This document shows positions 1 to 40,098 of a stretch of 64,000 nucleotides of DNA, piece by piece. The notes beneath the pieces were generated by a model. That model saw only the letters and a list, made by a program, of their open reading frames with translations. It had not been told where the DNA came from and did no database searches. The stretch is taken from contig CAKOZD010000001.1 of assembly GCA_934131175.1 (NCBI GenBank), forward strand, positions 32,928 through 96,927, read 5' to 3'. Made by a program: the position numbers and the translations under genes. This stretch comes from an uncultured Bacilli bacterium. Lineage in GTDB: Bacteria > Bacillota_I > Bacilli_A > RF39 > UBA660. Within the stretch, counting starts at the first letter, position 1; every line of letters starts with the position of its first letter.

Positions 1-1392
1 TGCATAGTATGGTAAAACACTTTGGAAAACATATGAAGCTTCAAAATTAAAGAAACTTGATAATATTGCAGTAATTGTAGTAGTAACAATATTAAATTTA
101 CTTCCAAGAATAGCTTTATAAATTACTAATTGGAATGGATGATATGTAACTAATACTAATACTGTATATAATAAGATAACTATACATGCAGGTAATAAAG
201 CTTTCTTAGCTCCTTCTGCAAATCCATCTAAAGCATCATCTAATTTAACTTTATAAATTATTACAAAAATTATTGTTACTAATAATAATGGTAATAATAA
301 GTCAACTAAAGTCCAAGAACCAAATGCATTCATTGTTCCTAAAATTTTACCGAAAATATTAAATCCGAATAATTCAAATTTAGAAACAGCATCAGTAGCA
401 GTAGACATAGCCTTGATTCCAAAAGCACTTTCCCATGGAATAAATGCTAAAACCATCAAAATAAATAATAATCCAAAAAGAATATAGAATGTCGCTGTCT
501 TATAATGTTTACCATTATTAGCAACAATAACATCTTCATCTACTAATGCTGCTTTATTAGCATTTTTACTAGTAGTCTTCTTTGTTGATTTCTTTGTTGA
601 TGATTTAGTTGTTGACTTCTTAGTTGATGATTTCTTTGTAGAAGTTTTTTTAGAACTTGTTTTCTTTTCTTCTACTTCTTCTTTTTCTTCTTTCTTTGCT
701 TCTTCTTTAGCAATTTCTTCTGCCATAACTTCATCAGTTACTTTTACAGCAATACTCTTTGCATCTTCAGCAGCAACAGCTTTTTTATTCTTCTTTATAT
801 ACATAATTGTATTAAAGATTACTAAAGCTATTCCTACTAATAAGATGACAAATCTTACTCCGATTTGATAATCAGTCTTAAGACTTAATGTTTGAGTAAG
901 TACACTTAAGTTAGTAGTTGCATAAGTACTACCTGCAAGTCCAACTGTCATTGAACCAACAATAACTAATGCTGCAACAATCTTATCATATCCCATAAGG
1001 AAAATTAGTGAAACTAATAATGGAATAAAAATAGCAAAGGCAATTTGTAATCCACAAATTGAAACTCCAAATGCTAAAATTATAGAAATAATTGATAAAG
1101 CAAAAATTTCTTTTCCTTTTAATTTAGCAGCTAATTTTTCAACAAAATCGTGATAAGCAGGAATTTTGTTTAAAACTCCATAAAATCCTCCAACTAAGAT
1201 TATGAATAAAGCAATATATCCAAAATATGATAATGATGTAAATGGATAATTTACTAAATCAAATAATCCCATTTGAACGCGTCCTTGTTCTACATACGAA
1301 CTTGAATAATATGCAGCAGGTAAAATCCAAGAAAGTAATAAGAAAAGTAAAATTACAATTAGAACGACTTTCACTGTATTATGTTTTTTCAT
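1..1392 (-). CDS. Integral membrane transporter, YfcC-family-like (start codon at 1390-1392, 3' end off-window); contains a Lys/Ser/Thr-rich low-complexity insertion
   Basis: Open frame on the minus strand from the window edge to an ATG at 1390-1392, preceded by RBS ggagg (revcomp of 1396-1400). Hand translation gives MKKHNTVKVVLIVILLF... with multiple TM segments. Motifs resemble the YfcC/DcuC-like family (LVGGFYGVL, VIVGSMTVGLAGSTY). Not in the ORF track because it runs off the edge. Confidence 0.5.
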   Translation of the reverse strand, partial: MKKHNTVKVVLIVILLFLLLSWILPAAYYSSSYVEQGRVQMGLFDLVNYPFTSLSYFGYIALFIILVGGFYGVLNKIPAYHDFVEKLAAKLKGKEIFALSIISIILAFGVSICGLQIAFAIFIPLLVSLIFLMGYDKIVAALVIVGSMTVGLAGSTYATTNLSVLTQTLSLKTDYQIGVRFVILLVGIALVIFNTIMYIKKNKKAVAAEDAKSIAVKVTDEVMAEEIAKEEAKKEEKEEVEEKKTSSKKTSTKKSSTKKSTTKSSTKKSTKKTTSKNANKAALVDEDVIVANNGKHYKTATFYILFGLLFILMVLAFIPWESAFGIKAMSTATDAVSKFELFGFNIFGKILGTMNAFGSWTLVDLLLPLLLVTIIFVIIYKVKLDDALDGFAEGAKKALLPACIVILLYTVLVLVTYHPFQLVIYKAILGSKFNIVTTTITAILSSFFNFEASYVFQSVLPYYA

Positions 1393-1487
1393 AATTAACC
1401 TCCCATAATAATTATAACTATTATGGCCTTATTTTACAAGCATTTACAATTTATTTTAATGAAATTTTTGTGAAAAAAAAGAAGAAC

Positions 1488-2978
1488 TTAATTTCTGTTC
1501 TTCTCCTTCATTGTAGGGAATAATAATACATCACGAATTGAATCTTGTTCAGTAAATAACATAACAAGTCTATCAATTCCATAACCGATACCACCAGCAG
1601 GAGGCATACCATATTCAAGAGCCTCTACAAAGTCATAATCAATATCAGTTGCTTCATCATTTCCTAAATCTCTTTCTGCAATTTGTGCTTCAAATCTTTC
1701 CAATTGATCAATTGGATCATTTAACTCAGTATATGCATTAGCAAATTCTTTACCACCAATAAATAACTCAAATCTATCAACAAATCTTGGATCATCTGGA
1801 TTTTTCTTTGTTAAAGGTGATATTTCAATTGGATGACCATATAAGAATGTAGGTTGAATTAAAGTTTCTTCAACATATTTTTCAAAGAATAAATTAACTA
1901 TATGTCCAAAACTCTTTTCATGTTCTTGAACTTCAATACCATGTTCTTCTGCTAACTTTAAGCATTCTTCTAAAGATAAATCTTGTTTAAAATCAATTCC
2001 TGTTTGCTCTTTAATAGCATCTACCATACTGATTCTCTTCCATGGTCCTTCTAAATTTATTTCATTTCCATAGAAAGTATAATTCATTTTTCCAACAACA
2101 TTTTTGGCAATATTTGTAAACATTCCTTCAGTTAAGTCCATCATTCCTTCTAAATCAGAATATGCTAAATATGCTTCTAATTCAGTAAATTCAGGATTAT
2201 GTCTTAAATCCATACCTTCATTTCTAAATACTCTTCCAATTTCATAAACAGCCTCCATACCACCAACTAATAGTCTCTTTAATGGCAACTCTAAAGCAAT
2301 TCTTAAATACATATCTAAATCTTGAGCATTATGATGAGTTGTAAATGGTCTTGCAGATGCTCCTGTTAATAATGTAGATAGAACTGGTGTTTCAACTTCA
2401 ACAAAACCTTGATTATCTAAATAATTTTGAATGCTTCTAATAATTCTAGGTCTTAAAAAAGCTACTCTACGTGAATCTTCATTCATTATTAAATCTACAT
2501 ATCTACGTCTATATCTTTCTTCTTTATCTGTTAATCCATGGAATTTTTCAGGTAATGGTCTAAGTGCCTTTACTAAATGAGTATACTCTAAACATTTTAT
2601 TGTAACTTCACCTGTTTTAGTTTTCATTATTTTTCCATATACTCCAACAATATCACCTATATCAGCAGTTTTGAATAATGAATAACTTTCTTCTCCAATA
2701 TCATTTATTGAAATATAAATTTGAATAGTTCCTGTCTTATCTTGTATTGTAAAGAAAGATGCTTTTCCCATTTTTCTTATAAACATAATTCTTCCTACTA
2801 CTTTTGCAGTATCATCCATATTTTCAAATGCATCATGTTCAACATCAGCATATTTTTCTTTTATATCTTTAGCATAACTATCTCTATCAAATCTATGACC
2901 AAATGGATCTAATCCTAATTCTCTTAATTTTTCTGCTTTTTCTCTTCTAACTATTTCTTGTTCAGTTAATTCTCGCAT
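1488..2978 (-). CDS. lysS: Lysine--tRNA ligase (class II)
   Basis: 496 aa. N-terminal anticodon-binding OB domain and class II catalytic core motifs (FELFIGGKEFANAYTELNDP, GGIGYGIDRLVM). Confidence 0.92.
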   Translation of the reverse strand: MRELTEQEIVRREKAEKLRELGLDPFGHRFDRDSYAKDIKEKYADVEHDAFENMDDTAKVVGRIMFIRKMGKASFFTIQDKTGTIQIYISINDIGEESYSLFKTADIGDIVGVYGKIMKTKTGEVTIKCLEYTHLVKALRPLPEKFHGLTDKEERYRRRYVDLIMNEDSRRVAFLRPRIIRSIQNYLDNQGFVEVETPVLSTLLTGASARPFTTHHNAQDLDMYLRIALELPLKRLLVGGMEAVYEIGRVFRNEGMDLRHNPEFTELEAYLAYSDLEGMMDLTEGMFTNIAKNVVGKMNYTFYGNEINLEGPWKRISMVDAIKEQTGIDFKQDLSLEECLKLAEEHGIEVQEHEKSFGHIVNLFFEKYVEETLIQPTFLYGHPIEISPLTKKNPDDPRFVDRFELFIGGKEFANAYTELNDPIDQLERFEAQIAERDLGNDEATDIDYDFVEALEYGMPPAGGIGYGIDRLVMLFTEQDSIRDVLLFPTMKEKNRN

Positions 2979-3051
2979 GAAATCACTCCTCTTTTCTTTC
3001 TAAAATAACATATTATTTAAAACAAATAAACATAAAATATAAAATTTACTA

Positions 3052-3807
3052 TTATTCAACTACATTTACAACTCTAGTTCTACAAACTAAATCATGTAAT
3101 CCTTTTCCATCTTTTCTAAACATCATCATAATTGCACATATGAAAAGAATAATATATTGAATAAAACTAACACCCATAACTACAAAAATATATGACCTTT
3201 TAGCAACAGTAAGCATAACTATAAAATCAATTATATATAGTAGCAATAAATTTATCATAAAACTTCTAAAAATCATTTGATTGATAGTAAGCTCATCTGT
3301 TTCAGATTCAACTCTTATTTTCATTAATTTTTTACCTAATGTTTGGCCTTTACTATATGTTTGATATACAACAAAATATAATATAGTTAATAAAATCACA
3401 CAAATAGACACTATTCCTTGCTCACGAGCAATACTATAACTTATATTACCATATTGAATAACATAATCTTCTGTACTAATTTCATTTTTTTGCAATTGAT
3501 CAACAATTTTTGTTGCTTGATTGCTTAAACTTTCAACTCTTTTTGCATCTAAAAATGGTGTTGCAATTAAAGATGCAATAAAACTTACTAAAAGAATATC
3601 AATTAAATAAGCAAAAACACGCTTAGTAAAATAAACTTTTTCTTCTGTTTTCTCTGATTTTTCTTCTTTGGATTTCTCAGTCTTTCTAACCTTTCCACTT
3701 TCTACATATTCTTTAATTTTAGAACTAACATCTTCTGAAGCATCTTCTTCTGTCTTTTCATCAACTTCTTCTTCAGAAACTATATCAGCCTCTATCTTTT
3801 TCTTCAT
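3052..3807 (-). CDS. RDD-family membrane protein
   Basis: Acidic N-terminus, then TM helices with the R/D-containing pattern typical of RDD proteins. Start moved to the second Met (MKKKIEADIV), which has RBS aaggagg 6 nt upstream. The ORF-track start at 3828 is probably an extension. Confidence 0.55.
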   Translation of the reverse strand: MKKKIEADIVSEEEVDEKTEEDASEDVSSKIKEYVESGKVRKTEKSKEEKSEKTEEKVYFTKRVFAYLIDILLVSFIASLIATPFLDAKRVESLSNQATKIVDQLQKNEISTEDYVIQYGNISYSIAREQGIVSICVILLTILYFVVYQTYSKGQTLGKKLMKIRVESETDELTINQMIFRSFMINLLLLYIIDFIVMLTVAKRSYIFVVMGVSFIQYIILFICAIMMMFRKDGKGLHDLVCRTRVVNVVE

Positions 3808-4777
3808 TTTGTGCCTCCTTAAATTCATTCAATAATAAGATTATATCATGAATATTAGTTGTTTGATACACCTTATTCTTTAACTCATTAGCACCTTTAA
3901 TACCTTTAAAATACCAAGAAATATGATTTCTGATTTCTAAACAAGCTAATTTTTCATTTTTTAATGAATCTAATAATTTTAAATGTTTTAAACACATATT
4001 AATTCTATCAACGATAGACACATCAATAACTTCTTTTTCTTCAAGATAATTAACAGTGTTTTTTATAAGCCAAGGATTTCCTAAAACTCCTCTACCTATC
4101 ATAACTGCATCACATTTTGTCTCTTCAAGCATCCTTTTCGCATCCTCAGGAGATTTTATATCACCATTACCAATAACAGGAATTGAAACATTCTCTTTTA
4201 CTTCTTTAATAATATTCCAATCAGCTTTACCACTATATCCTTGACTTCTAGTTCGTGGATGGACACATATAGCACTTGCTCCTGCTTTTTCTATTACTTT
4301 AGCAACTTCTACAGCATTAATATGATTGCTATCCCAACCACTTCTGATTTTAACAGTAACTGGAACATTAACAGCCGAAACAACACTAGAAACTATATCA
4401 AAAATTTTATCTGGATCTTTAAGTAATGCTGAACCAGCTTGTGCTCTAACAGCAACTTTTGGAACAGGGCACCCCATATTTATATCAATTATATCTGGTT
4501 TCATCTCTTTTTCAATAAATTTAGCTGCCTCTACAAAAGACTCTTTATCACTACCAAAAATTTGTTGACTAATTGGTCTTTCTTTTTCTGTCATATAAAG
4601 CATATCTATAGTTTTTTGATTATTATATGTAATTGCTTTATCACTTACCATCTCTGCATATATTAATCCACATCCCATATCCTTACAAATTTGTCTATAT
4701 GCAGAATTACAAATACCAGCCATTGGTGCTAAAACAACTTGATTTGATATCTTTACATTTCCTATTTTCCACTCCAT
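3785..4777 (-). CDS. dus: tRNA-dihydrouridine synthase
   Basis: 330 aa. LAPMAGICNSAYR, catalytic Cys region MGCPVPKV and a TIM-barrel FMN-binding pattern. RBS aggagtg upstream. Confidence 0.85.
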   Translation of the reverse strand: MEWKIGNVKISNQVVLAPMAGICNSAYRQICKDMGCGLIYAEMVSDKAITYNNQKTIDMLYMTEKERPISQQIFGSDKESFVEAAKFIEKEMKPDIIDINMGCPVPKVAVRAQAGSALLKDPDKIFDIVSSVVSAVNVPVTVKIRSGWDSNHINAVEVAKVIEKAGASAICVHPRTRSQGYSGKADWNIIKEVKENVSIPVIGNGDIKSPEDAKRMLEETKCDAVMIGRGVLGNPWLIKNTVNYLEEKEVIDVSIVDRINMCLKHLKLLDSLKNEKLACLEIRNHISWYFKGIKGANELKNKVYQTTNIHDIILLLNEFKEAQNEEKDRG

Positions 4778-7831: not shown

Positions 7832-9163
7832 TTAACTATATTTCAATATTATATCATAAACATCGGATTTCTTTTTGTCAAATTTAGATTTTTTAATTCC
7901 AGGAATCCATACAACATTCCCACATGAGTCGACAACAATAGGCCAACTATCACGCTTATCCAATGATATTTTTTTATCTATAAATATATCCTTAACCTTT
8001 TTGGTACCATTTAAACCTTTTACCTTTATTTTGTCTCCAAATCTTCTTGTTCTAACAATTAAAGGTAAGGTTATTTCTGATGTATTAAGTCTACATATAT
8101 TATTACTATTATCAGAATCATCAAGTGTTTTCTCTATATAATGATTATTTGGTAACATAGCATAATTATCAAACTCAATCTCATAAGATGAAATTGTATC
8201 AATACTTCTATTAAGAGTAAAATAATTATATTCTTTCTTTGCTATTACATCATTTGGTAAATTAATAAAACTATTAGCTTTTCTACTATTAATTAAAGTT
8301 ATAATCAAATCAATATGTCTATCTCCAACTAATATTAAATCATCTTGATAAAACTCACTCAACATATAGTATAATAATTCTCTTTGAATAAACTCATCCT
8401 CTAACAAAAATTTATCAATAATTAACTTTTCTTTATCAAAAACTCTTTTTATAGCCTTATCAGTTTCCTTTTCAATAAACTTATTTGCTTCATTTAATGT
8501 ATCACTAAATTTTAAAAATTTTAAATGAACATCTTTTTCTTCTTGTTTTAGGAATGGTAACACATATTTTCTATATCTATTTCTGGTATACTTATCTTTG
8601 TCATTCGAACTATCAACATAATACTTAACATTATTATCAATATCATATTGACGAAGTTCTTCCTTAGTATAATGAACTAATGGTCTAATAATTTTATAAG
8701 TATCCATATCTACAACACTTTTAAAACCACTATAACCATTTAAGTTAGAACCTCTAACTATTCTCATTAAAACAGTTTCCATTAAATCATCACCATGATG
8801 TGCAGTCATTAGATAATTCGCATCATATTTATGAACTAAATTTTCAAAAAAATTATATCTTATATTTCTTGCCTCATTATGAAAATTATCATCACCATAC
8901 TCTTCAATAACCATAACTTCAAATACTAGGTTATTATCTATACAATATTGTTTTAAAAATTCCGCTTCTTCATAACTCTCTTTTCTAACATTATGATTTA
9001 CATGAGCAATTATTAAACTTAAATTATATTTATTTCTAATCTTTAGCAACATATCAACAAGAGCCATTGAATCAGGTCCAGTAGAACAACCAATGACAAT
9101 CTTATCATTTTGCCTAAATTTAAAGTCCTTCTCTATATTAATCATGGACATTCCTCCAATCAA
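7832..9163 (-). CDS. tilS: tRNA(Ile)-lysidine synthetase
   Basis: PP-loop SGGxDS-like motif (GCSTGPDSMAL) and TilS C-terminal domain. No hprT gene follows it, unlike the Bacillus tilS-hprT-ftsH arrangement. Confidence 0.85.
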   Translation of the reverse strand: MIGGMSMINIEKDFKFRQNDKIVIGCSTGPDSMALVDMLLKIRNKYNLSLIIAHVNHNVRKESYEEAEFLKQYCIDNNLVFEVMVIEEYGDDNFHNEARNIRYNFFENLVHKYDANYLMTAHHGDDLMETVLMRIVRGSNLNGYSGFKSVVDMDTYKIIRPLVHYTKEELRQYDIDNNVKYYVDSSNDKDKYTRNRYRKYVLPFLKQEEKDVHLKFLKFSDTLNEANKFIEKETDKAIKRVFDKEKLIIDKFLLEDEFIQRELLYYMLSEFYQDDLILVGDRHIDLIITLINSRKANSFINLPNDVIAKKEYNYFTLNRSIDTISSYEIEFDNYAMLPNNHYIEKTLDDSDNSNNICRLNTSEITLPLIVRTRRFGDKIKVKGLNGTKKVKDIFIDKKISLDKRDSWPIVVDSCGNVVWIPGIKKSKFDKKKSDVYDIILKYS

Positions 9164-11638: not shown

Positions 11639-12442
11639 TTATTTATTATATAACCCATTTGCTAAATCAATAAAAACATCTAATTGTAAATTTTCAGCTC
11701 TGACACTCAAATCATATCCATAATTATTTAAAATATTCTCAACAATATTTAAATCATAACTTTTCAAATTATTTTTAATTGTCTTTCTCTTAAATTGAAA
11801 AGAATCTCTAACAATTTTTTCAAAAAAATCTAAATCAACGACTTCTCTTCTTTCCTTTTTTTCTTTAAAGGATACTATTACACTATCAACTTTAGGTTCT
11901 GGTACAAACTCTTTCTTTGAAACAAAAAACTCTTTTTTGATATCATAAAAATAATTTAACAATACAGTAATTGATCCATATTCTCTAGTTCCAGGTCCAG
12001 TTGAAAATCTATCTCCTACCTCTTTTTGTACCATCATTACAATTTTTTCAAAAGATAAATGTGATTTTACCAGTTTCATAAGTATAGGTGTTGTTATATA
12101 ATAGGGTACATTACTAACAAAATATAATTTATCATAATCATATTTTTCTACGTCTGACGGAATATCAGCCTCTAAAAAATCTTGAAATAAAACATCAACA
12201 TTATCAAGACCATCAAGTCTTTTAAACAACTCATCAGAAAGTTCTGTATCTATTTCATATGCAAGGACATTCTTGGCACACATTGCAAGCTCTCTAGTCA
12301 TAATTGCTCCACCTGGACCAACTTCTATAACTAAATCATCAGAACTAACTCCACTTACATCTACAATTCTTTTTACTGTATTAATATTTTTCAAAAAATT
12401 TTGTCCAAATTTCTTTTTAAATTTAACATCATACTTTTCCAT
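11639..12442 (-). CDS. rsmA: 16S rRNA (adenine1518-N6/adenine1519-N6)-dimethyltransferase
   Basis: FGQNFL motif and SAM-binding VIEVGPGGAIMTREL. True start is probably the internal Met MEKYDV (12442). The ORF-track start at 12547 adds a non-homologous 35-aa extension. Confidence 0.85.
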   Translation of the reverse strand: MEKYDVKFKKKFGQNFLKNINTVKRIVDVSGVSSDDLVIEVGPGGAIMTRELAMCAKNVLAYEIDTELSDELFKRLDGLDNVDVLFQDFLEADIPSDVEKYDYDKLYFVSNVPYYITTPILMKLVKSHLSFEKIVMMVQKEVGDRFSTGPGTREYGSITVLLNYFYDIKKEFFVSKKEFVPEPKVDSVIVSFKEKKERREVVDLDFFEKIVRDSFQFKRKTIKNNLKSYDLNIVENILNNYGYDLSVRAENLQLDVFIDLANGLYNK

Positions 12443-12497
12443 AAAATCACCAACCGTTCCTATTATAAAACATATCAAAAAAAAAGAAAAGAATTTA

Positions 12498-13106
12498 TTA
12501 AGACTCTCTTCTCTTTGACATAACAACAGTAATTTTAATAGCATCATATAAAATAACTATTCCTATAGGAATTAAAAAACAATATAAGAAATTAGAAGGT
12601 TTTGATAAAAATGAATGTACATAACCTATTTTTGGAATAACAAATAAAACCTTTCCATAAATCTGATCAGTTGCAACAGAAGCATAATCAGCAACTGGAT
12701 TATTATCACCTTTTGTAGTATAAATCGAACTATCCTTATTAACGTTTTCTTTATTGATAATTCTATGAGTTACTGTTAATCCTTTATAATATGTATCGCT
12801 AGATGAAAAACTTATAATATCTCCAACTTTATATTTATCATGATCAACTCTTTTTACAATAATAGCATCATTAATATTTATTGTTGGAACCATACTTTGT
12901 GAAACAATAACATAACCATTAAATAAAGGACTTTTATAATTTGGGTTATTAGAATTAATCAAAATATCTCCAAAATAAAGACAAAAAACAAAACCAATCA
13001 CAACTATAAAGCACAAAATTGCCAACAAAAACGCTCTTACAATAAAATGTGATAAGTACTTAATTTTATCAAAAGGGTTTTCTAATCTACCTTCCATCTT
13101 TATCAA
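12498..13106 (-). CDS. sipW: Signal peptidase I, SipW-like (archaeal/ER-type S26)
   Basis: 202 aa. N-terminal TM, catalytic Ser in VSQSMVP, His in TVTHRII, and GDNN motif typical of SipW-type peptidases. Confidence 0.65.
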   Translation of the reverse strand: MIKMEGRLENPFDKIKYLSHFIVRAFLLAILCFIVVIGFVFCLYFGDILINSNNPNYKSPLFNGYVIVSQSMVPTININDAIIVKRVDHDKYKVGDIISFSSSDTYYKGLTVTHRIINKENVNKDSSIYTTKGDNNPVADYASVATDQIYGKVLFVIPKIGYVHSFLSKPSNFLYCFLIPIGIVILYDAIKITVVMSKRRES

Positions 13107-13191
13107 CTTCTCCTATCATATTTTTATTATAATACTCAAAAAATCAAAAAACTATAAATAAAAATAAAAAGAAGTCAACTTTACACTTCTT

Positions 13192-13794
13192 TTATTTAGC
13201 TTTTCCATTAATATCAACTTCTACAGAATAAGTACCATTTTGAACTAAACTAGTATCAGCAAGCCAAATTCTTAATCTATAATTATCAGTACCTGACTTA
13301 ACTTTCTTTGTTTTAGTAAGTACCATACTATCTTTTTCACTTCCTAATACAGTTTTCTTCTTCAATCCATCAAATTTTGTAGGACCAAATACTTTAGAAT
13401 AAGTTCCATCACTTTCTTTTTCTAAATAAACTCTTATATCACTATCTGGAATAGTACTTTTACTTTTATCTCTTTTTATAGAAACTTCATATTCAACATA
13501 CTTAGCTTCATCTAGATTAACATCTACAGAAAAATCAAAATATGAACCTTCTGTATTATCTTTTATTCCTATTAAATCAGAAGTTGGAATAGCATTCGAT
13601 ATACTTAGACCATCTATATTATCAGAATAGTTAAGTAAAATATTTCCTCCTTCTTTTTTCTCAACAACAACTTCTTGCTTCTTATTACTAACAAGAGCTA
13701 TACCAACAGCAAGAACTATTATAAATATAGAACACACACATATAAAAACTATCCAAAAATTCTTTGATAATTTTTCTTTTTTTGAACTAGCCAT
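13192..13794 (-). CDS. Secreted/membrane-anchored hypothetical protein B, paralog of the adjacent gene
   Basis: 200 aa. N-terminal basic stretch plus hydrophobic signal/anchor. C-terminal motif RLRIWLAD is shared with the upstream paralog (KLRAWVSD). Probably a SipW substrate. Confidence 0.5.
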   Translation of the reverse strand: MASSKKEKLSKNFWIVFICVCSIFIIVLAVGIALVSNKKQEVVVEKKEGGNILLNYSDNIDGLSISNAIPTSDLIGIKDNTEGSYFDFSVDVNLDEAKYVEYEVSIKRDKSKSTIPDSDIRVYLEKESDGTYSKVFGPTKFDGLKKKTVLGSEKDSMVLTKTKKVKSGTDNYRLRIWLADTSLVQNGTYSVEVDINGKAK

Positions 13795-13802
13795 ATTTCC
13801 TC

Positions 13803-14396
13803 CTAAATACTCCTTACATATATATCAAAAGATATACACTTATTATCATTACCTAATGAATACAAATCAGATACCCAAGCTCTTAATTTAAACTTCATAC
13901 TACTATTAGACTTAATAATACCAGAATATAGAAGTTTAGAATCAGGTAAATCATCTATAACAGCTAAAGATGAATATGTAGGTAACTTATTATTAGTAAA
14001 TCCATTCAAAGCATTATCATTAGAATCAGTTAAATATAAATTTACAAATTCATTTCCAATTTCATTCTTCCCAGAACATTTAGAATTTTTCTTTAAGTAT
14101 ATTTGATAATTTATATCAGTAGAATATTCATTTTTATAAGTAAACTCTTTTAATACTTGCTTTGCATCATCAGCGTCTCCTCTATATACTTTACCCAAAG
14201 CATCAGAAACAGGAAAACTACTATTTAAATAAACATTATTTGTCTCAACATAATTTTCTTCTAAAACATATGCTCTCTTTAAATTATTTCTATTACTAGT
14301 ATAAAAATATCCAAGTAACATAAAAAAGACAAATAAGAATACAATTACAATAAGTGCCAGCATAACTTGTTTTTTATCTTTAACATTCATATCCAC
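13803..14396 (-). CDS. Secreted/membrane-anchored hypothetical protein A, paralog of the adjacent gene
   Basis: 197 aa. N-terminal signal/anchor. Shares LN-S block and C-terminal K-LR-W--D motif with protein B. Confidence 0.5.
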   Translation of the reverse strand: MDMNVKDKKQVMLALIVIVFLFVFFMLLGYFYTSNRNNLKRAYVLEENYVETNNVYLNSSFPVSDALGKVYRGDADDAKQVLKEFTYKNEYSTDINYQIYLKKNSKCSGKNEIGNEFVNLYLTDSNDNALNGFTNNKLPTYSSLAVIDDLPDSKLLYSGIIKSNSSMKFKLRAWVSDLYSLGNDNKCISFDIYVRSI

Positions 14397-14431
14397 ACCA
14401 ACCTATTATTTCCTAAAGAATATCACAAAAA

Positions 14432-15190
14432 CTATTTCAAGTCAAATAAGTCATACGTACTAGAAAGTGTATTCTCAGATACATTTTCAATAGATAAATT
14501 AAGAATTTCTGCTACTTTTTCTGCTATTAATGGTATATATTTGGAACTATTCTTTTGTCCTCTATAAGGATCAGGAGTTAAATAAGGACTATCTGTTTCT
14601 AATAAAATATTTTTAATACCAATAGCATCAACTACTTTATACAAATTACTATTTTTAAATGTAACAACTCCACCTATTCCAATTTTATATCCCATTGATA
14701 TATATACTTTAGCAGTTTCTACACTTCCACTAAAACAATGAATATCTCCAATTACATTAGGAAACTCTTTCAATATATTAATTGTATATTGAGTAGCATC
14801 TCTACTATGAATAACAACAGGTAAATTTAATTTTTCAGCAAGAGACATTTGCTTTCTAAATAAATCTTGTTGCTCTAACATATCTTCTTTTCCATAATGA
14901 TAATCAAGACCAATCTCACCTATACCTACAACTTTATTAGTATTAATTAATTGAGTTTCTAATAATTCTATATCTTTATCTGTTATAGTAGATACTTCAC
15001 TAGGATGATATCCTAAAGTTAAATAAACATTCTCATACTTTTTTGATAATTCAATCGATTCTAAAATACTTTCTTTAGTACATCCAGAAATAATCATTTT
15101 TTCTATTCCAGCTTTTTTATTTTCTTCTACAATTAAATCAATATCATCATAATCTTCACAAGATAAATGACAATGTGTATCAATAAACAT
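14432..15190 (-). CDS. tatD: TatD-family metal-dependent DNase
   Basis: MFIDTHCHL start motif (internal Met of the listed ORF) and TatD His/Glu/Asp metal ligands. Confidence 0.85.
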   Translation of the reverse strand: MFIDTHCHLSCEDYDDIDLIVEENKKAGIEKMIISGCTKESILESIELSKKYENVYLTLGYHPSEVSTITDKDIELLETQLINTNKVVGIGEIGLDYHYGKEDMLEQQDLFRKQMSLAEKLNLPVVIHSRDATQYTINILKEFPNVIGDIHCFSGSVETAKVYISMGYKIGIGGVVTFKNSNLYKVVDAIGIKNILLETDSPYLTPDPYRGQKNSSKYIPLIAEKVAEILNLSIENVSENTLSSTYDLFDLK

Positions 15191-15261
15191 ATTATCCCTC
15201 CAAAACAATTATACACTAAAAAGAAAAATCCTATAATGTTAACTTACATTATAGGATAATT

Positions 15262-17060: not shown

Positions 17061-17729
17061 TTAATCATCTAAATTATCATTTAATAATCTAGAATTATTT
17101 AAAGTAAATAAATATCTTTCAGCTTGCTCCTTAGCACTATTCATCAAAGTTGTATCTTTCACTAATATCTTAATATCAACATTTTCAAGTAACTGATTTT
17201 TATATGTACTCTTAATCCACTTAGAAATATCAGTAGTAATTTTAGCCTTTTTAACATCATCAGCATCGTCCATGAATATGCAATTTATCTTTTTTAAAAT
17301 ATATTTATCAAGTCCCATAGCTAACTGATCTTTAATAATTTTTTTTATTTGTTTATTTATATTACTAAAATCCTTTTTATTAATTTTAATAACATCACTA
17401 TTTTTAACAAATTCTGTACTTTCAACCTTACTAGATAATTCAGATACTCTAATAGTTTTTATTTCATTACAACATTTCATAATATATTTTCTATAATTAT
17501 CAAGAATTTTCTTTAATTCATCAGTATTTAGAATTATTTTGTTTTTCTTTGCTAAATCAAGAAATTTGGCCTTAATTAAATCCATAGAATCTAATGGAGG
17601 TGTCTTTAATAATGATTTAATATCTTCATCAACTAAAACATTAGTATTATTTTTGATATTCTCTAATATTGCTTTTCTATAATTATCAATATGTTGAGTC
17701 TTTATTTTTTCAAGTTCTTCTTCACTCAT
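17061..17729 (-). CDS. Hypothetical coiled-coil protein
   Basis: 222 aa K/E/N-rich ORF between mfd and the metG leader. No recognisable family. Confidence 0.45.
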   Translation of the reverse strand: MSEEELEKIKTQHIDNYRKAILENIKNNTNVLVDEDIKSLLKTPPLDSMDLIKAKFLDLAKKNKIILNTDELKKILDNYRKYIMKCCNEIKTIRVSELSSKVESTEFVKNSDVIKINKKDFSNINKQIKKIIKDQLAMGLDKYILKKINCIFMDDADDVKKAKITTDISKWIKSTYKNQLLENVDIKILVKDTTLMNSAKEQAERYLFTLNNSRLLNDNLDD

Positions 17730-35496: not shown

Positions 35497-36622
35497 AATA
35501 TGTTCTAATTGGTAAAACTAATTGAGTTAAAGTTTCGTCTTCTGTTGATTTTATAAGGATTGGTTTTACTTCTCCTACAAAATGTAAATCAACAGTTTCT
35601 GTTGAAAAACTCTTTAAAGCTTCCATCATATATTTAGCACTAAATGAAATCTTAATATCTTCACTATTATTTTTAGAAATACTCATTTTTTCTTCTACAC
35701 GACCAATTTCTGCAGAACTACTTTTTAATGTTAATGTATTTCCTTCAGTTTCTAAAGTAACTATATTCTTTTCTTTATCACTAGTTAAAATACTTACACG
35801 GTCAATTACACTATAGAAATCATTTAAATTAGTACTTACTACTAAATAAGAATCATCAGGTAAAAGATTTGCAGTATTAGGATATGTTCCATTAATTAAA
35901 CGAGATTCAAATTTTAAATTACCATTTTTAAATAAAACTTTATTATTAAAGATATGAACCTCAACATCTTCACTATCATCACCTAAAATTTTTGTAAATT
36001 CAATTAAGTTATGACTTGGAATTACAATATTATAATTTTCTTCACTTGCTTTTTCTAATTTAACTATTTTTCTAGCTAAACGATATGAATCTGTAGAATT
36101 ACATTCAAGAATATCCCCTACTATATTAAAGTTAATACCAGTTAAAACAGGCTTACTTTCTTCATTAGATGTTGCAAATGCTGTTTGATTAACAATACTT
36201 TTTAAAACACCAGCATTGATATTAATTTTTTTCTTACTTTCTTCTAAACCAACATTTGGATATTCTGATTCACTAATACCATTTAAATTAAATTCACTAT
36301 TTTCTGTGTAAATTAATATTTTTAATTCATCAATTACTTCTACATTTATATATTGGTCAGGTAATTTTCTAACTATATCTAATATATATTTACCTTGAAT
36401 AATAATACTACCTTCGCTATCTATTTTAAATTCATCATCATTTACAGATTCAATAGTAGTTTGAATAGTAATATCGTTATCACTTGCTGTTAAAGTAAGT
36501 TTTTTCTTTTTTAATTCAAATTTAATACCTGCAAGAACTGGAATTAAATTTTTAGTAGATATTGCTTTTGATACTTTTGATAAAGCGTCTAATAATAAAT
36601 CTTTTTTAATTGTAAATTTCAT
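35495..36622 (-). CDS. dnaN: DNA polymerase III beta sliding clamp
   Basis: 375 aa. Three-domain beta-clamp pattern. Synteny dnaA-dnaN. Confidence 0.95.
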   Translation of the reverse strand: MKFTIKKDLLLDALSKVSKAISTKNLIPVLAGIKFELKKKKLTLTASDNDITIQTTIESVNDDEFKIDSEGSIIIQGKYILDIVRKLPDQYINVEVIDELKILIYTENSEFNLNGISESEYPNVGLEESKKKININAGVLKSIVNQTAFATSNEESKPVLTGINFNIVGDILECNSTDSYRLARKIVKLEKASEENYNIVIPSHNLIEFTKILGDDSEDVEVHIFNNKVLFKNGNLKFESRLINGTYPNTANLLPDDSYLVVSTNLNDFYSVIDRVSILTSDKEKNIVTLETEGNTLTLKSSSAEIGRVEEKMSISKNNSEDIKISFSAKYMMEALKSFSTETVDLHFVGEVKPILIKSTEDETLTQLVLPIRTY

Positions 36623-36745
36623 ATATTATTCCTTCTTTCTTATTTATATTTATATTATAGCTGTGGAAAAAGTTGAAAACTCAAAAATTGTCTTATTTTT
36701 CAACAAAAATGTATCCACATAACCTGTGGAAAAACATCTTAAAAC
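36623..36745. promoter_or_regulatory. oriC: oriC part 2: dnaA-dnaN intergenic DnaA-box cluster
   Basis: DnaA boxes are TGTGGAAAA at 36662..36670, TATCCACA at 36712..36719 and TGTGGAAAA at 36725..36733. Confidence 0.7.
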
Positions 36746-38173
36746 TCACATGTTTTTCACAACCCCAATATCTTTCTTTAATTTTTCTATTATATTAGCT
36801 AAATCTTTATTAACTTTAATTTCATTTTCAATTTTTTCAACCGAATGCATTACTGTAGAATGGTCTTTGCCACCAAATTCCGTACCAATCTTAGGAAAAC
36901 TCTCATTTGTCATTACTCTACATAAATACATAGCAATTTGCCGTGGAAAAGAAATATTTGAACTTCTCTTTTTACTTCTTATGTCATCAACTGTAATTTG
37001 GAAATATTCAGATACTATTTTTTGTATTCTATGAATATCATTTTTCTCCCCTATTCCTTTACTAATAAAGTCTTTCAAAGCATCAATTGCTAAATCAAGA
37101 TTAATTTTTTCTTTTCCCATAATAGTTGAATATGCAATTAATCTAGTAATAGAACCTTCTAGATTTCTAACATCTGGTCCTATATTTGATGCAATATACT
37201 CTATTACATCATCTGGTATTTCTTGCTCAACGTTTTCTGCAACTATTTTTTTCTTTAAAATTTCCATTCTAAGTGAGAAATCTGGTGGGAATATATTAAC
37301 CGTTAATCCCCAGCAAAACCTTGTCCTTAAACGATCTTCTAGTAATTTTAAATCATCAGGAGATCTATCTGATGAAATAATGATTTGCTTATTATCATTA
37401 TATAAATTATTAAATGTATGGAAAAATTCTTGTTGTGATTGCGTTGCTCCTCCTAAAAATTGAATATCATCGATTAGTAAAACATCTATATTTCTATATT
37501 TATCTTTAAAGAAATCAACGTAATTAAAATTAGTTCCTTTATCATCTTTTCTTGTGGATTTTACAAATTCTTCTCTAAATTGTTCGCTTGTAACATAAAG
37601 GACTCTTTTATCAGAATTTTCAACTATATAGTTTCCTATAGCATGCATTAAATGTGTCTTCCCTAACCCACTATTTCCAAATAGAAATAAAGGATTATAT
37701 ATTTTTCCAGGGTTTTCTGCTACAGAAAGTGCAGCTGCTCTTGCGAATTTGTTTGTATTTCCTACAATAAAATTATCAAAAGTATAGTTTTTCTTTAAAT
37801 TAGAATTAATATTAAATTGTTTATTAGGTGGTGATTTATCTTCTAATTTTTTCTTTTCTTCTAGCATTTCTTTTTCAACTATAATTGTGGATATTTCTTC
37901 TTCTAATAAAAACAAAAGTTCATATGAAGAATCAGTTAATTCATTTAGTTTGCTAGATATTGTCTCATAATAATTCTCTTGTAAATGTTTTTTGTGAATT
38001 GGCATAGGAACTATTATATAAGCTTTTTCATCTTTTAGTTCATATAATTTGGTTTCCTTAAACCAGGTTTGATAAGAGATGGATGAGATTTCATCTTTTA
38101 TTTGTTCAAGTATTTTAGACCATAAAATATCTACATTCAAGTTACCATCTCCCCATAAGTAATAATCAATCAA
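36746..38173 (-). CDS. dnaA: Chromosomal replication initiator DnaA
   Basis: 475 aa. AAA+ Walker A GNSGLGKTHL. C-terminal DNA-binding signature (KKRSSNISFPRQIAMYLCR). Confidence 0.97.
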   Translation of the reverse strand: MIDYYLWGDGNLNVDILWSKILEQIKDEISSISYQTWFKETKLYELKDEKAYIIVPMPIHKKHLQENYYETISSKLNELTDSSYELLFLLEEEISTIIVEKEMLEEKKKLEDKSPPNKQFNINSNLKKNYTFDNFIVGNTNKFARAAALSVAENPGKIYNPLFLFGNSGLGKTHLMHAIGNYIVENSDKRVLYVTSEQFREEFVKSTRKDDKGTNFNYVDFFKDKYRNIDVLLIDDIQFLGGATQSQQEFFHTFNNLYNDNKQIIISSDRSPDDLKLLEDRLRTRFCWGLTVNIFPPDFSLRMEILKKKIVAENVEQEIPDDVIEYIASNIGPDVRNLEGSITRLIAYSTIMGKEKINLDLAIDALKDFISKGIGEKNDIHRIQKIVSEYFQITVDDIRSKKRSSNISFPRQIAMYLCRVMTNESFPKIGTEFGGKDHSTVMHSVEKIENEIKVNKDLANIIEKLKKDIGVVKNM

Positions 38174-38583
38174 ACCTATTCTACATTAAAATAATTAAAA
38201 ATGAAAGTAAAAAAACATAAAAAAAACAAATTAATTTTGTAGATTAAATTTGATGTGTCGATATATACAATAACATATTTTTTCATTTTATTAAATAAAA
38301 AAATAATTAAATTTTTTTTAGTACAAAATTAGGGTACTTTTCAACATAATTTTACACTTCAAAAAAATCAAAAAAATAGCATTCGACATTTTCCACCAAT
38401 ATTCCACAAAGTTTTCAACAATTGAAGTGTATATATAATAAGGATAAAAATAAGTTTTCCACATTTTCCACAGAAAAGTTATTAATAGGGTATAAAAAAG
38501 TTTTAAACAAACTTGTGGAAATTGTTAATAACTAAAAAAATAATTAAAATAAATTAAAAAAAGAATAAATTAACAACTTTTAT
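38174..38583. promoter_or_regulatory. oriC: oriC part 1: DnaA-box cluster plus AT-rich unwinding region upstream of dnaA
   Basis: Box-like 9-mers are at 38389..38397 (TTTTCCACC), 38400..38408, 38455..38463 and 38464..38472 (tandem TTTTCCACA x2), and 38514..38522 (TGTGGAAAT). An extremely AT-rich stretch at 38200-38340 is the candidate DNA-unwinding element. Confidence 0.7.
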
Positions 38584-38613
38584 TTGACAAAATCACAATT
38601 ATATTATTATAAT
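38584..38613 (+). promoter_or_regulatory. Sigma-A type promoter for rpmH-rnpA (TTGACA-18-TATAAT)
   Basis: ttgaca at 38584..38589 and tataat at 38608..38613, 30 nt upstream of the rpmH RBS ggaggtgg. Confidence 0.5.
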
Positions 38614-38643
38614 AATGTAGATTTATGTCTGGAGGTGGAACAA

Positions 38644-38766
38644 ATGAAGAGAACATATCAACCAAACAATCGTAAAAAATCAAAAAAATTAGGATTTTTT
38701 GCACGTAAGAAAACAAACATTTTAAATCGTCGTCGTCGTAAAGGACGTAAAAGTCTTTGCAAATAA
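38644..38766 (+). CDS. rpmH: 50S ribosomal protein L34
   Basis: MKRTYQPNNRKKSKKLGFFARKKTNILNRRRRKGRKSLCK. Start at the internal Met of the listed ORF, preceded by RBS ggaggtgg. Confidence 0.96.
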   Translation: MKRTYQPNNRKKSKKLGFFARKKTNILNRRRRKGRKSLCK

Positions 38767-38771
38767 AAATA

Positions 38772-38800
38772 CCGCTGCTAAAAAACAGTGGTTTTTTACT
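38772..38800 (+). terminator. Probable partial rho-independent terminator or attenuator after rpmH
   Basis: ACCGCUG-cuaaaaaa-CAGUGGU hairpin followed by U7. Confidence 0.45.
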
Positions 38801-38825
38801 ATAAAAAGATAGGAATAGGGATATT

Positions 38826-39146
38826 ATGAGAAAAACATACATAGTAAAAGAAGCAAAAGATTTTGAAAATATAATAAAAAAAGGAAAATGTCGTAAAAAT
38901 CAAAGCTTTGTAATACATTTTAAGAAAAATAATTTACCATATGATAAATATGGAATATCTGTTAGTAAAAAATTAGGTAATGCTGTTTTTAGAAACAAAT
39001 ATAAAAGAAAAATACGAAGTATTATAGATAATTATAGAAAACTATATAATAATGGAGAAGATTATATTATAATATTAAGAAGAGGCGGAGTAGAGAAGTC
39101 GTTTCAAGATTTAGAAAGAGATTTTTTAAATCTTATGAAACGTTAG
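38826..39146 (+). CDS. rnpA: Ribonuclease P protein component
   Basis: 106 aa basic protein with RnpA motif region (GNAVFRNKYKRKIR). Synteny after rpmH. Confidence 0.85.
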   Translation: MRKTYIVKEAKDFENIIKKGKCRKNQSFVIHFKKNNLPYDKYGISVSKKLGNAVFRNKYKRKIRSIIDNYRKLYNNGEDYIIILRRGGVEKSFQDLERDFLNLMKR

Positions 39147-39165
39147 TGTAGAAAGGAAAGCAAGG

Positions 39166-40098
39166 ATGAAAAAAAACAAAAAATTCAAAATAGTAATAGT
39201 ATTGTTACTTTTATTATTAACAACAGGGTGTACAAAGACATTAACAGATAGTGATAAGAAAGCTGTAAAAAATGAAACAACAGGTCAAACATTAACAGAG
39301 AACATATTATGTAGACCAACAAATAAGGAAACAATAAAACTTTATGAAAAAAATAAAGTTAAAATTGATAAATTACCTGAATGTAAAGATTTCAATATAA
39401 CTTCTGGTAAATATGAAGGTTTATGGACAAGTTTATTTGTAAAACCATTAGCTTTTATACTAATATGGTTAGGAAATCTAGTTAAAAACAATGCAATATC
39501 AATTATTATTGTAAGTTTAGCTATAAGATTAATTGCATTCCCATTAACAAAAAAGACTGCAATGCAATCTGAGTTAATAAAAAAAGCACAACCAGAATTA
39601 AACAGAATTCAAAAAAAATATGCTAATAAACAAGACCAAGAGTCAATGATTAAACAAAATCAAGAAATTATGATGGTATATCAAAAATATAAAATAAATC
39701 CTATTTCAGGATGTCTATTTGCTTTTATACAATTACCAATATTTATTGCATTTTTTGAAGCAATTCAAAGAACACCAGTAATCTTTGAAGATAAATTCTT
39801 AGGATTACAACTTGGAACAACACCTGCAATTGGTATTACATCAGCAACATTCTATGCATATTTAATTATAATGATAATAATTGGAGCAACAACTTTCTTC
39901 TCATTTAAACTAAACTCAACAGGAAACATGGAAGACCCATCAATGAAAATGATGCCAACTATGATGACTGTGATGATTATTGTAACTGCCTTATTCATGC
40001 CATCAGGTTTAGGAATATATTGGGCTACATCAAATTTATTTACAATAGTTCAAAATGTAATGGTTAAAAGGAGTAAAGAAGTAAATGGAAAAGCATAA
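39166..40098 (+). CDS. yidC: Membrane protein insertase YidC (lipoprotein form)
   Basis: Lipobox LLLTTGC. Conserved YidC core (MQSELIKKAQPELNRIQKKY...GCLFAFIQLPIFIAFF). Confidence 0.9.
   Translation: MKKNKKFKIVIVLLLLLLTTGCTKTLTDSDKKAVKNETTGQTLTENILCRPTNKETIKLYEKNKVKIDKLPECKDFNITSGKYEGLWTSLFVKPLAFILIWLGNLVKNNAISIIIVSLAIRLIAFPLTKKTAMQSELIKKAQPELNRIQKKYANKQDQESMIKQNQEIMMVYQKYKINPISGCLFAFIQLPIFIAFFEAIQRTPVIFEDKFLGLQLGTTPAIGITSATFYAYLIIMIIIGATTFFSFKLNSTGNMEDPSMKMMPTMMTVMIIVTALFMPSGLGIYWATSNLFTIVQNVMVKRSKEVNGKA

Follow-up and report, generated by a model that had tools for sequence, protein, structure and literature searches.

The 64,000-nucleotide (nt) stretch of DNA analyzed here (the window) comes from an uncultured Bacilli bacterium, and our subject is the interval between its tatD and ksgA genes (positions 12498–14396), which consists of three minus-strand open reading frames (ORFs). 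Two of them encode small proteins, ParA and ParB, named so in this analysis, and the third encodes a SipW-like signal peptidase. Along the minus strand, the genes follow one another as mfd, a 222-amino-acid (aa) ORF, metG, tatD (14432–15208), parA, parB, sipW, ksgA, yabG, veg, spoVG, yabP, yabQ and divIC. The parA gene spans 13803–14390 on the minus strand and encodes 195 aa from an ATG at 14390, which is also the call in public assemblies (100% identical matches); an alternative GTG start at 14396 gives the longest ORF, 13803–14396, of 197 aa. The parB gene (13192–13794, minus strand, 200 aa) is preceded by a strong AGGAGG ribosome-binding site that overlaps the parA stop codon. The sipW gene (12498–13097, minus strand) encodes 199 aa from an ATG at 13097, as in public assemblies, and its longest ORF, from a TTG at 13106, covers 12498–13106 and 202 aa. 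The longest ksgA ORF (11639–12547, minus strand) encodes 302 aa and shares 50 nt with the 3′ end of sipW; in public gene calls, ksgA begins later, encodes 267 aa and is separated from sipW by ~55 nt, and the first 35 residues of the 302-aa ORF are probably not translated. The GC content of the three genes is the same as that of their flanks, 0.23–0.28, and because of this equal base composition parA, parB and sipW carry no mark of foreign DNA.

The arrangement recurs in many relatives. A search of a 5.8-billion-protein collection returned 199 homologs of ParB, all of them unnamed or labeled "hypothetical protein [Bacilli bacterium]", and 54 homologs of ParA, which evolves faster than ParB. In a survey of one genome per GTDB species, we found 67 loci, all in metagenome-assembled genomes (MAGs) from human, rodent, rabbit and ruminant guts. 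NCBI labels these MAGs variously as uncultured Bacilli, Mollicutes, Tenericutes, Erysipelotrichaceae or "Mycoplasma sp. CAG:877"; the closest relative of the window locus is that of UMGS532, with 95% ParB identity. In 62 of the 67 loci, a sipW homolog comes directly after the paralog genes; of the remaining ones (L031, L044 and L071–L073), 4 are interrupted by a contig end or have no sipW in the stretch examined. Two paralogs are present in 47 loci, three in 11, four in 4 and one in 5, the one-paralog loci being either cut short or a separate single-copy site. Where flanks are present, the recurrent order is metG-tatD-parA-parB(-extra paralogs)-sipW-ksgA-yabG-veg-spoVG-yabP, and this order reaches down to ~35% ParB identity. 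The first-pass annotation had described the trio as a three-gene insertion relative to Bacillus synteny; where the trio sits here, the B. subtilis map would have yabE-rnmV. This description has to be abandoned: the same trio lies between tatD and ksgA in ~60 related species, and a gene order shared by 60+ species means that the arrangement is ancient and fixed in this lineage. Two of these species are classified in GTDB as RF39/UBA660, and the genera CAG-877 and UBA3789 belong to the order RF39 and the family UBA660 (o__RF39, f__UBA660; supplementary table of PMC10868615). Most RF39 species are predicted to be walled, and RF39 is predicted to sporulate with an unusual gene set (PMC10868615); the presence of yabG, yabP and yabQ in the window agrees with predicted sporulation.

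Several loci differ in detail. In deep-branching relatives the locus grows to 3–5 family genes; L051 and L057 have four paralogs each. In L068, a family member of 1120 aa (1294–4656) is located inside the tatD-sipW interval and combines a Big_2-like domain with a long C-terminal part rich in Cys. In L006, an extra gene encoding a 157-aa DnaB_C/AAA-like protein (8179–8652) is present between ksgA and yabG in a region that is otherwise collinear.

The assignment of the third gene as a SipW-like archaeal/ER-type (endoplasmic reticulum-type) signal peptidase I, made in the first-pass annotation, is borne out. The protein matches the model of this class, TIGR02228, with 90.9 bits (cutoff 51.85) over model positions 12–155 of 158. 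It reaches 72.4 bits with NF046067, the Bacillus SipW equivalog model, which is below the cutoff of 190, and 24 bits with the model of bacterial P-type signal peptidases. By these scores, the window SipW is a member of the class, but not an ortholog-level member of Bacillus SipW. In phmmer alignments with human SEC11A and SEC11C, residues Ser71, His114 and Asp134 (numbered according to the 202-aa ORF) coincide with the catalytic residues, and the corresponding motifs pair as SQSMVP with SGSMEP, THRI with VHRV and KGDNN with KGDNN. The catalytic partner of the serine is thus a histidine and not the lysine of P-type LepB/SipS. Hydrophobic segments are found at the N- and C-terminus alike. Among 63 SipW orthologs from related loci, Ser71, Met72, Pro74, Thr113, His114, Arg115, Gly133, Asp134, Asn136 and Asp140 are invariant; a loss of the catalytic Ser or His, which had been raised as a possibility, is therefore not seen, and the conservation pattern indicates that this is a SipW-class enzyme under strong purifying selection. 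No S26 peptidase other than SipW is present in the 64-kb window, and the supplement of PMC10868615 has no sipW or lepB entries.

ParA and ParB had been proposed to be paralogs of about 200 aa with N-terminal signal or anchor sequences and a shared K-LR-W-[AS]-D motif, and all of these features stand. A single BLASTP comparison aligns the two proteins over nearly their full length with 20% identity and an E-value of 8e-6. They have in common the blocks P.SD..GK, [YF].[DE]F (YFDF/EF), Y[EQ]I, YL[ET] and [KR]LR.W[LV][SA]D, and within the family no block is better conserved than the last of these; in alignment A2, W177 is invariant, whereas L174 and R175 are at least 90% conserved. The AlphaFold model of ParB (pLDDT, the predicted local distance difference test score, of 88; pTM, the predicted template modeling score, of 0.71) consists of a Lys-rich N-terminus, a helix at residues 11–36, a low-confidence linker (37–50) and a nine-strand jelly-roll (51–199), with the 24-residue hydrophobic segment modeled as one continuous helix. 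In the model of ParA (pLDDT 78), an N-terminal hydrophobic helix at ~3–35 of the 195-aa form precedes a jelly-roll ectodomain of ~150 aa. The order of elements is the same in both models: a long helix, a linker, two short strands, a short helix and seven further strands that make up a beta-sandwich. By alignment and predicted structure, ParA and ParB are distant paralogs, and the same evidence supports the view that they are exported or anchored extracytoplasmic proteins. Their best fold matches are carbohydrate-binding jelly-rolls, namely the PNGase F N-domain, the BcsB CBD, CBM32 (F5_F8_type_C), CBM6 and CBM3.

Scans of ParA, ParB and seven distant relatives against Pfam and NCBIfam returned nothing but noise. 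Weak matches to Filamin, TipC, MAG1140 and SAG1386 were rejected, as all of them were caused by the transmembrane (TM) region, and CXCR4 matches that appeared between the family profile and sequences of the Protein Data Bank (PDB) were rejected as spurious. Neither protein matches any Pfam or NCBIfam family, cytoplasmic ones included, and their homologs are unnamed, in line with the earlier statement that the family was not a known one. The suspected kinship with TasA fared differently. The Peptidase_M73 (PF12389) and TasA/camelysin (NF046066) models match neither ParA and ParB nor the seven relatives, even at E-value thresholds from 1 up to 10, whereas TasA itself, used as a positive control, scored 513.8 bits in the profile scan. 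The model of the SipW-cognate signal peptide, TIGR04088 (cutoff 19 bits), finds no match at the N-terminus of ParA or ParB and gives 38 bits for the TasA control. TIGR04089 and TIGR04090 (BsaA) match none of the window proteins or relatives; their weak matches to TasA show that both models were searched.

Are ParA and ParB isolated, or do they belong to something larger? An exhaustive HMMER search with a 22-sequence profile against 1.84 billion cluster representatives detected 3271 clusters at E ≤ 1e-3, of which 1349 pass a threshold of 1e-10 and 183 one of 1e-30; the third round of an earlier word-indexed profile search had returned close relatives only. This makes for a very large family devoid of annotation, with thousands of clusters, no Pfam or NCBIfam model and no name in any source. 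The individual members described here come from the best 150 of the 3271 matches. Many of those listed are 400–1743 aa long and have the domain at their extreme N-terminus, straight after the hydrophobic segment, and in most of the long proteins scanned it is followed by Big_2 repeats, Flg_new (Listeria-Bacteroides) repeats or an F5/8 type C (F5_F8_type_C) domain. The domain thus appears to be the N-terminal module of many big adhesin-like proteins of RF39-type Bacilli. For 10 long members, no source offered an informative name, one fragment being called "hypothetical protein".

Some of the large members are distinctive in their own right. In P0266, P0267 and P0346, a long spacer separates the hydrophobic segment from the domain and is made up of Ser/Asn/Gly-rich low-complexity sequence or of calcium-binding-looking repeats of the CDxNGDGKCD type. 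Such a spacer resembles a stalk that raises the domain off the membrane, so that for these three proteins at least it can be argued that they stay anchored. The 1743-aa P0304 (locus L074) adjoins murG-murB-ftsQAZ, with no sipW within 8 kb. Downstream of it (13869–15077 of L074) are two small paralogs of 190 and 194 aa, one with and one without the cleavage cassette described below, and between them and P0304 there is a 151-aa ORF with an N-terminal hydrophobic segment (13293–13748). For P0360, no sipW was called in the flanks examined, where the contig ends ~0.8 kb downstream. The 64-kb window itself contains no family members beyond ParA and ParB, and no cassette.

What connects this family with SipW is a sequence pattern at the end of the hydrophobic segment. 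In many members from the deeper loci (L045–L073), a K-rich start and ~20 hydrophobic residues are followed by V-G-[IV]-[ST]-[YF]-A-[AIV]-F-[STN]-[YF]-[ST]..G...N.I.TG.I.M.Y.E. The core cassette, [ST][YF]A↓[AIV]F or, with its preceding residues, G-[IV]-[ST]-[YF]-A↓[AIV]-F, was found by regular expression in 33 of 142 family members at related loci. All 33 come from deep or intermediate lineages, and not one from the crown group of ~40 species (L007–L044) that includes the window. The cassette mirrors, in the same register, positions P3–P2′ of TasA (T-W-A↓A-F), whose sequence we checked against PDB 8AUR. Because of its aromatic P2 and P2′ residues, the TasA site is reported to be handled poorly by LepB-type peptidases, whereas the ER-type SipW cleaves it (PMC10269814). 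An HHalign comparison of the family with a reference alignment of TasA and six plasmid-borne TasA-family proteins covers 67 columns with a probability of 50% and an E-value of 1.6e-4, placing the cassette on GGTWA↓AF, the TG.I.M (T-G-x-I-x-M) strand on GTLDL and N..P (N-A-x-P) on NLKP of TasA. The probability is 20% when the cassette-bearing members alone are compared with the TasA set, and 0.4%, that is, no similarity, when the mature domains are compared with the TasA family after removal of signal peptides. With TIGR04088, canonical (cassette-bearing) relatives score 10.9 and 9.5 bits over model positions 2–34 of 34, against the cutoff of 19. Thus, members of the family probably have signal peptides of the SipW class, and the family may belong, very distantly, to the TasA superfamily, but by sequence it lies outside TasA in every formal test of membership.

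In the window pair the cassette is missing. Across 40 ParB orthologs, Gly31 is followed by [FIY]-[VIA]-[LV]-F-S-N-R, with a spacing from this glycine to the conserved Phe that is two residues shorter than in canonical members; 26 of the 40 have Val or Ile at the P1-equivalent position, and the ParA site is likewise degenerate. A look for cleavage sites after the hydrophobic segment had been proposed in the first-pass annotation; no TasA-like site is present there in either protein. The distribution of the cassette across the lineage is graded. In the deepest loci every copy is canonical. The intermediate three-paralog loci L046 and L063 retain a single canonical copy, the one that adjoins sipW; L053 retains two, those closest to sipW, and in L062 the sipW-adjacent copy reads SYAVM, which is near-canonical. 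The crown group no longer has a third copy, and the two that it keeps are both degenerate. The earlier idea that ParA and ParB are substrates of SipW consequently divides in two: a link to SipW is credible for the family, in which 33 of 142 members bear a TasA-like cassette, and falls short for the window proteins, which have none. The simplest inference from sequence and models is that both proteins have become ectodomains with a type II signal-anchor, and their cleavage and assembly into fibers are doubtful.

The regulatory DNA of the locus points to two transcription units. In such AT-rich DNA, a generic promoter scan by itself does not rise above chance (34 found, 31 expected), and the credibility of the three elements described here comes from their conservation across species whose proteins are ~50% identical. 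A promoter-like site for parAB (14417–14445, minus strand) straddles the tatD stop codon and is composed of TTGACT, a 17-nt spacer and an extended –10 element, TG-n-TATTCT; its motif, TTGACT, 17 nt, TG-n-TAT[TC][CT]T, recurs in a non-coding stretch in 32 of 58 related loci. Directly 3′ of the parB stop codon is an intrinsic-terminator-like hairpin with a T-run (13161–13191, minus strand), in which AAGAAGT pairs with ACTTCTT across a 9-nt loop. Such a hairpin and T-run follow the last paralog in 56 of 62 loci, and while the stems vary by lineage (GAAGTG/CACTTC, GAACGTG/CGTTC, TAGAAA/TTTCTA), their pairing is kept. Further downstream, a perfect TATAAT –10 box (13126–13131, minus strand) lies inside the conserved GTATTATAAT block upstream of sipW; in 47 of 62 loci, a TATAAT is found no more than 70 nt upstream of sipW, where by our estimate from base composition ~0.17 per locus would be expected by chance. 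The conserved promoter and terminator imply that parAB is a transcription unit of its own and that a new one starts at sipW(-ksgA). The conserved parAB promoter is probably sigma-A-driven, to judge by its sequence, and no sporulation-type promoter was recognised. Upstream, between metG and tatD, a 12-bp perfect inverted repeat with a T-run (15228–15257) resembles an intrinsic terminator; this suggests a separate transcript that begins with tatD, ahead of parAB.

Taken together, we favor, with moderate confidence, the view that the locus represents a lineage-wide, ancestral pairing of SipW with surface proteins, in which the family is cleaved by SipW, whereas ParA and ParB are uncleaved anchors. 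On this view, RF39-type gut Bacilli would keep a SipW-class peptidase beside members of a Sec-exported jelly-roll surface family. SipW would cut the cassette of canonical members and thereby leave ~15 N-terminal residues free in front of the beta-sandwich. In many relatives, the sandwich would be the base from which a long adhesin-like protein extends, equipped with Big_2, Flg_new or F5/8-C domains. The third, cassette-bearing paralog that adjoins sipW in intermediate lineages is absent here. Most likely, ParA and ParB would be exported by Sec and stay on the outside of the membrane, fastened there by a signal-anchor that is not cleaved, and they would have a structural or glycan-binding role as a pair at the surface; a cut at a non-canonical site, for example after the conserved Gly31, would be less likely. 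SipW would be kept for other substrates (other family members) or for general secretion, while parAB, with its own sigma-A-type extended –10 promoter and terminator, and sipW, with a separate promoter, would be expressed apart.

Certain observations pull away from this view. The whole region from mfd to ftsH is syntenic in related loci, and the adjacency to sipW may consequently be a matter of inherited gene order and not of functional coupling. Some members of the family, such as those of L074, are encoded far from any sipW. Finally, Gly31 is kept in 34 of 40 ParB orthologs, with Ile, Ala, Thr, Ser or Val at the –3 position, so that a cryptic cleavage site after Gly31 in ParB, although less likely, is conceivable from the sequence.

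The first two points lead to an explanation in which the genes are coincidental neighbors: SipW would be the general, perhaps the sole, type I signal peptidase of these reduced genomes, and ParA and ParB unrelated anchored surface proteins that bind, for instance, glycans or wall polymers and by chance share this highly syntenic, origin-proximal region with it. As the mfd-to-ftsH block is collinear in all loci, linkage carries little information, and the separate transcription units, the members away from sipW, the carbohydrate-binding jelly-rolls among the best fold matches and the strict conservation of SipW even where both neighbors are without a cassette all agree with coincidence. We nevertheless consider it unlikely, since the cassette of relatives has the unusual aromatic P2 and P2′ of TasA, linked to SipW- and not LepB-type cleavage, a cassette-bearing copy sits directly upstream of sipW in intermediate lineages, and it is at this one locus that the number of paralogs expands to 3–5.

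The last point bears on the opposite possibility, that ParA and ParB are cut by the adjacent SipW and then assemble in a TasA-like manner, for example by donor-strand exchange, into a fiber, biofilm matrix or spore surface. The adjacency to sipW in 60+ species and the apparent ancestry of a TasA-like cassette in the family speak for such a role, and a promoter and terminator of their own together with a strong ribosome-binding site would suit an abundant structural protein. Gly31, with its permissive –3 residue, might provide an alternative site, and the lineage is predicted to sporulate; TasA itself was reportedly first described as a spore-associated protein, CotN. Yet ParA, ParB and the rest of the crown group have no cassette, and mostly Val or Ile at the P1-equivalent position. 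The window proteins match neither TIGR04088 nor the TasA, camelysin and BsaA models, their mature domains have no detectable similarity to TasA, the 24-residue continuous hydrophobic helix is anchor-like, and the promoter is sigma-A-like, with no sporulation type recognised. All this makes assembly after cleavage rather unlikely for the window pair.

A different role for an uncleaved pair would be that of non-catalytic membrane partners of SipW, analogous to eukaryotic SPC22/23 (SPCS3). SPC22/23 is a type II membrane protein of ~180 aa, whose lumenal beta-sandwich packs on SEC11, and SipW is a bacterial homolog of SEC11, aligning with SEC11A and SEC11C. ParA and ParB have the same size and architecture (an N-terminal TM segment and a beta-sandwich of ~150 aa), and in the crown group ParA, ParB and SipW occur strictly 1:1:1, with cleavage sites that look uncleavable. 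The likeness is architectural only, as no sequence or fold relationship is detectable: HHalign gives the family a probability of 0.45% against human SPCS3 (sequence verified against 7p2p_B), and PF04573 (SPC22/23) has no match in ParA or ParB. Moreover, relatives are cleavable-looking adhesin-type proteins not linked to sipW, and B. subtilis SipW is not known to need such partners. We thus rejected an SPC22/23 identity for ParA and ParB on both sequence and fold and regard a partner role as highly improbable.

Our preferred pairing of SipW with a partly anchored surface family has clear parallels among known systems. In tapA-sipW-tasA of B. subtilis and sipW-calY/tasA of the B. cereus group, an ER/archaeal-type peptidase is likewise encoded beside small exported beta-sandwich proteins, and the signal peptide of TasA has the same length and the same P3–P2′ pattern ([ST]-aromatic-A↓A/I/V-F) as that of ParA/ParB relatives. 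The differences are equally evident. Here, the mature domains lack homology (the HHalign value of 0.4%) and the Peptidase_M73, TasA and TIGR04088 models find nothing, the two window proteins have no cleavage cassette, and the same domain also heads adhesin-like proteins of 400–1700 aa. The B. subtilis tapA-sipW-tasA genes form a single operon, whereas in the RF39 locus, fixed between tatD and ksgA near oriC, the paralogs lie upstream of sipW and a conserved terminator parts two transcription units. The same concept, a SipW/Sec11-type peptidase combined with a special signal peptide on matrix or pilus subunits, underlies BsaA of Clostridium perfringens (TIGR04090), the "alternate-type signal peptide" proteins of TIGR04089 and the archaeal TasA-like AbpA bundling pili, but the domain family described here is a different, unnamed one. 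The theme of sipW plus a cognate protein is therefore known; the domain family and its cassette-less pair are new.

Beyond the three genes, the window has two further features of interest. The 222-aa ORF between mfd and metG (17061–17729, minus strand) has no Pfam or NCBIfam match and is kept at the same position in nearly all related loci (phmmer E-values from 1e-35 to 1e-136); by these comparisons, it is a lineage-specific gene with no assigned family. At ~38.2–39.1 kb (within 36000–40000), GC skew switches from about –0.3 to +0.25, and the long ORFs around this point are all on the minus strand to the left and all on the plus strand to the right. Leftward from 38185, the ORFs have sizes and an order that would fit dnaA-dnaN-recF-gyrB-gyrA, and DnaA-box-like 9-mers cluster at 36662–36733 and 38455–38472. 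This region is a probable chromosomal replication origin; parA-parB-sipW would then lie ~25 kb from it and be oriented in the direction of replication. A scan of the 64-kb window found no tRNA genes.

Uncultured Bacilli of the RF39 type are common in the gut communities of humans and ruminants, yet to our knowledge almost nothing has been known about their cell surface. The main value of our results is in revealing a large, unannotated surface-protein family in this gut lineage together with a natural transition from cleavage cassette to anchor. The family carries a rare type of signal peptide otherwise known from TasA-class matrix proteins. If its dependence on SipW is true, one peptidase and one motif would provide a handle for predicting the exported surface proteome of these bacteria, the TasA/SipW paradigm would extend past Bacillus, Clostridium and archaea, and the lineage would offer a graded set of natural cases, with the cassette present at one end and lost at the other, in which to study the conversion of a cleavable signal peptide into a membrane anchor. 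If it is not true, a new domain family and its conserved regulatory layout would still have been cleanly defined. A bolder idea, speculative and in our estimate quite unlikely, is that the "RLR-W" jelly-roll constitutes a sortase-independent surface-display or fiber system, in which the strand freed by the SipW cut would polymerize the domains or dock them, onto each other or onto the wall, long adhesin arms of Big_2, Flg_new or F5/8-C domains would ride on the polymer, and ParA and ParB, cassette-less and kept beside sipW, would act as a membrane-bound, TapA-like nucleator or anchor. Were this so, RF39-type Bacilli would possess another assembly line of the TasA type, independent of the first and with adhesins built in.

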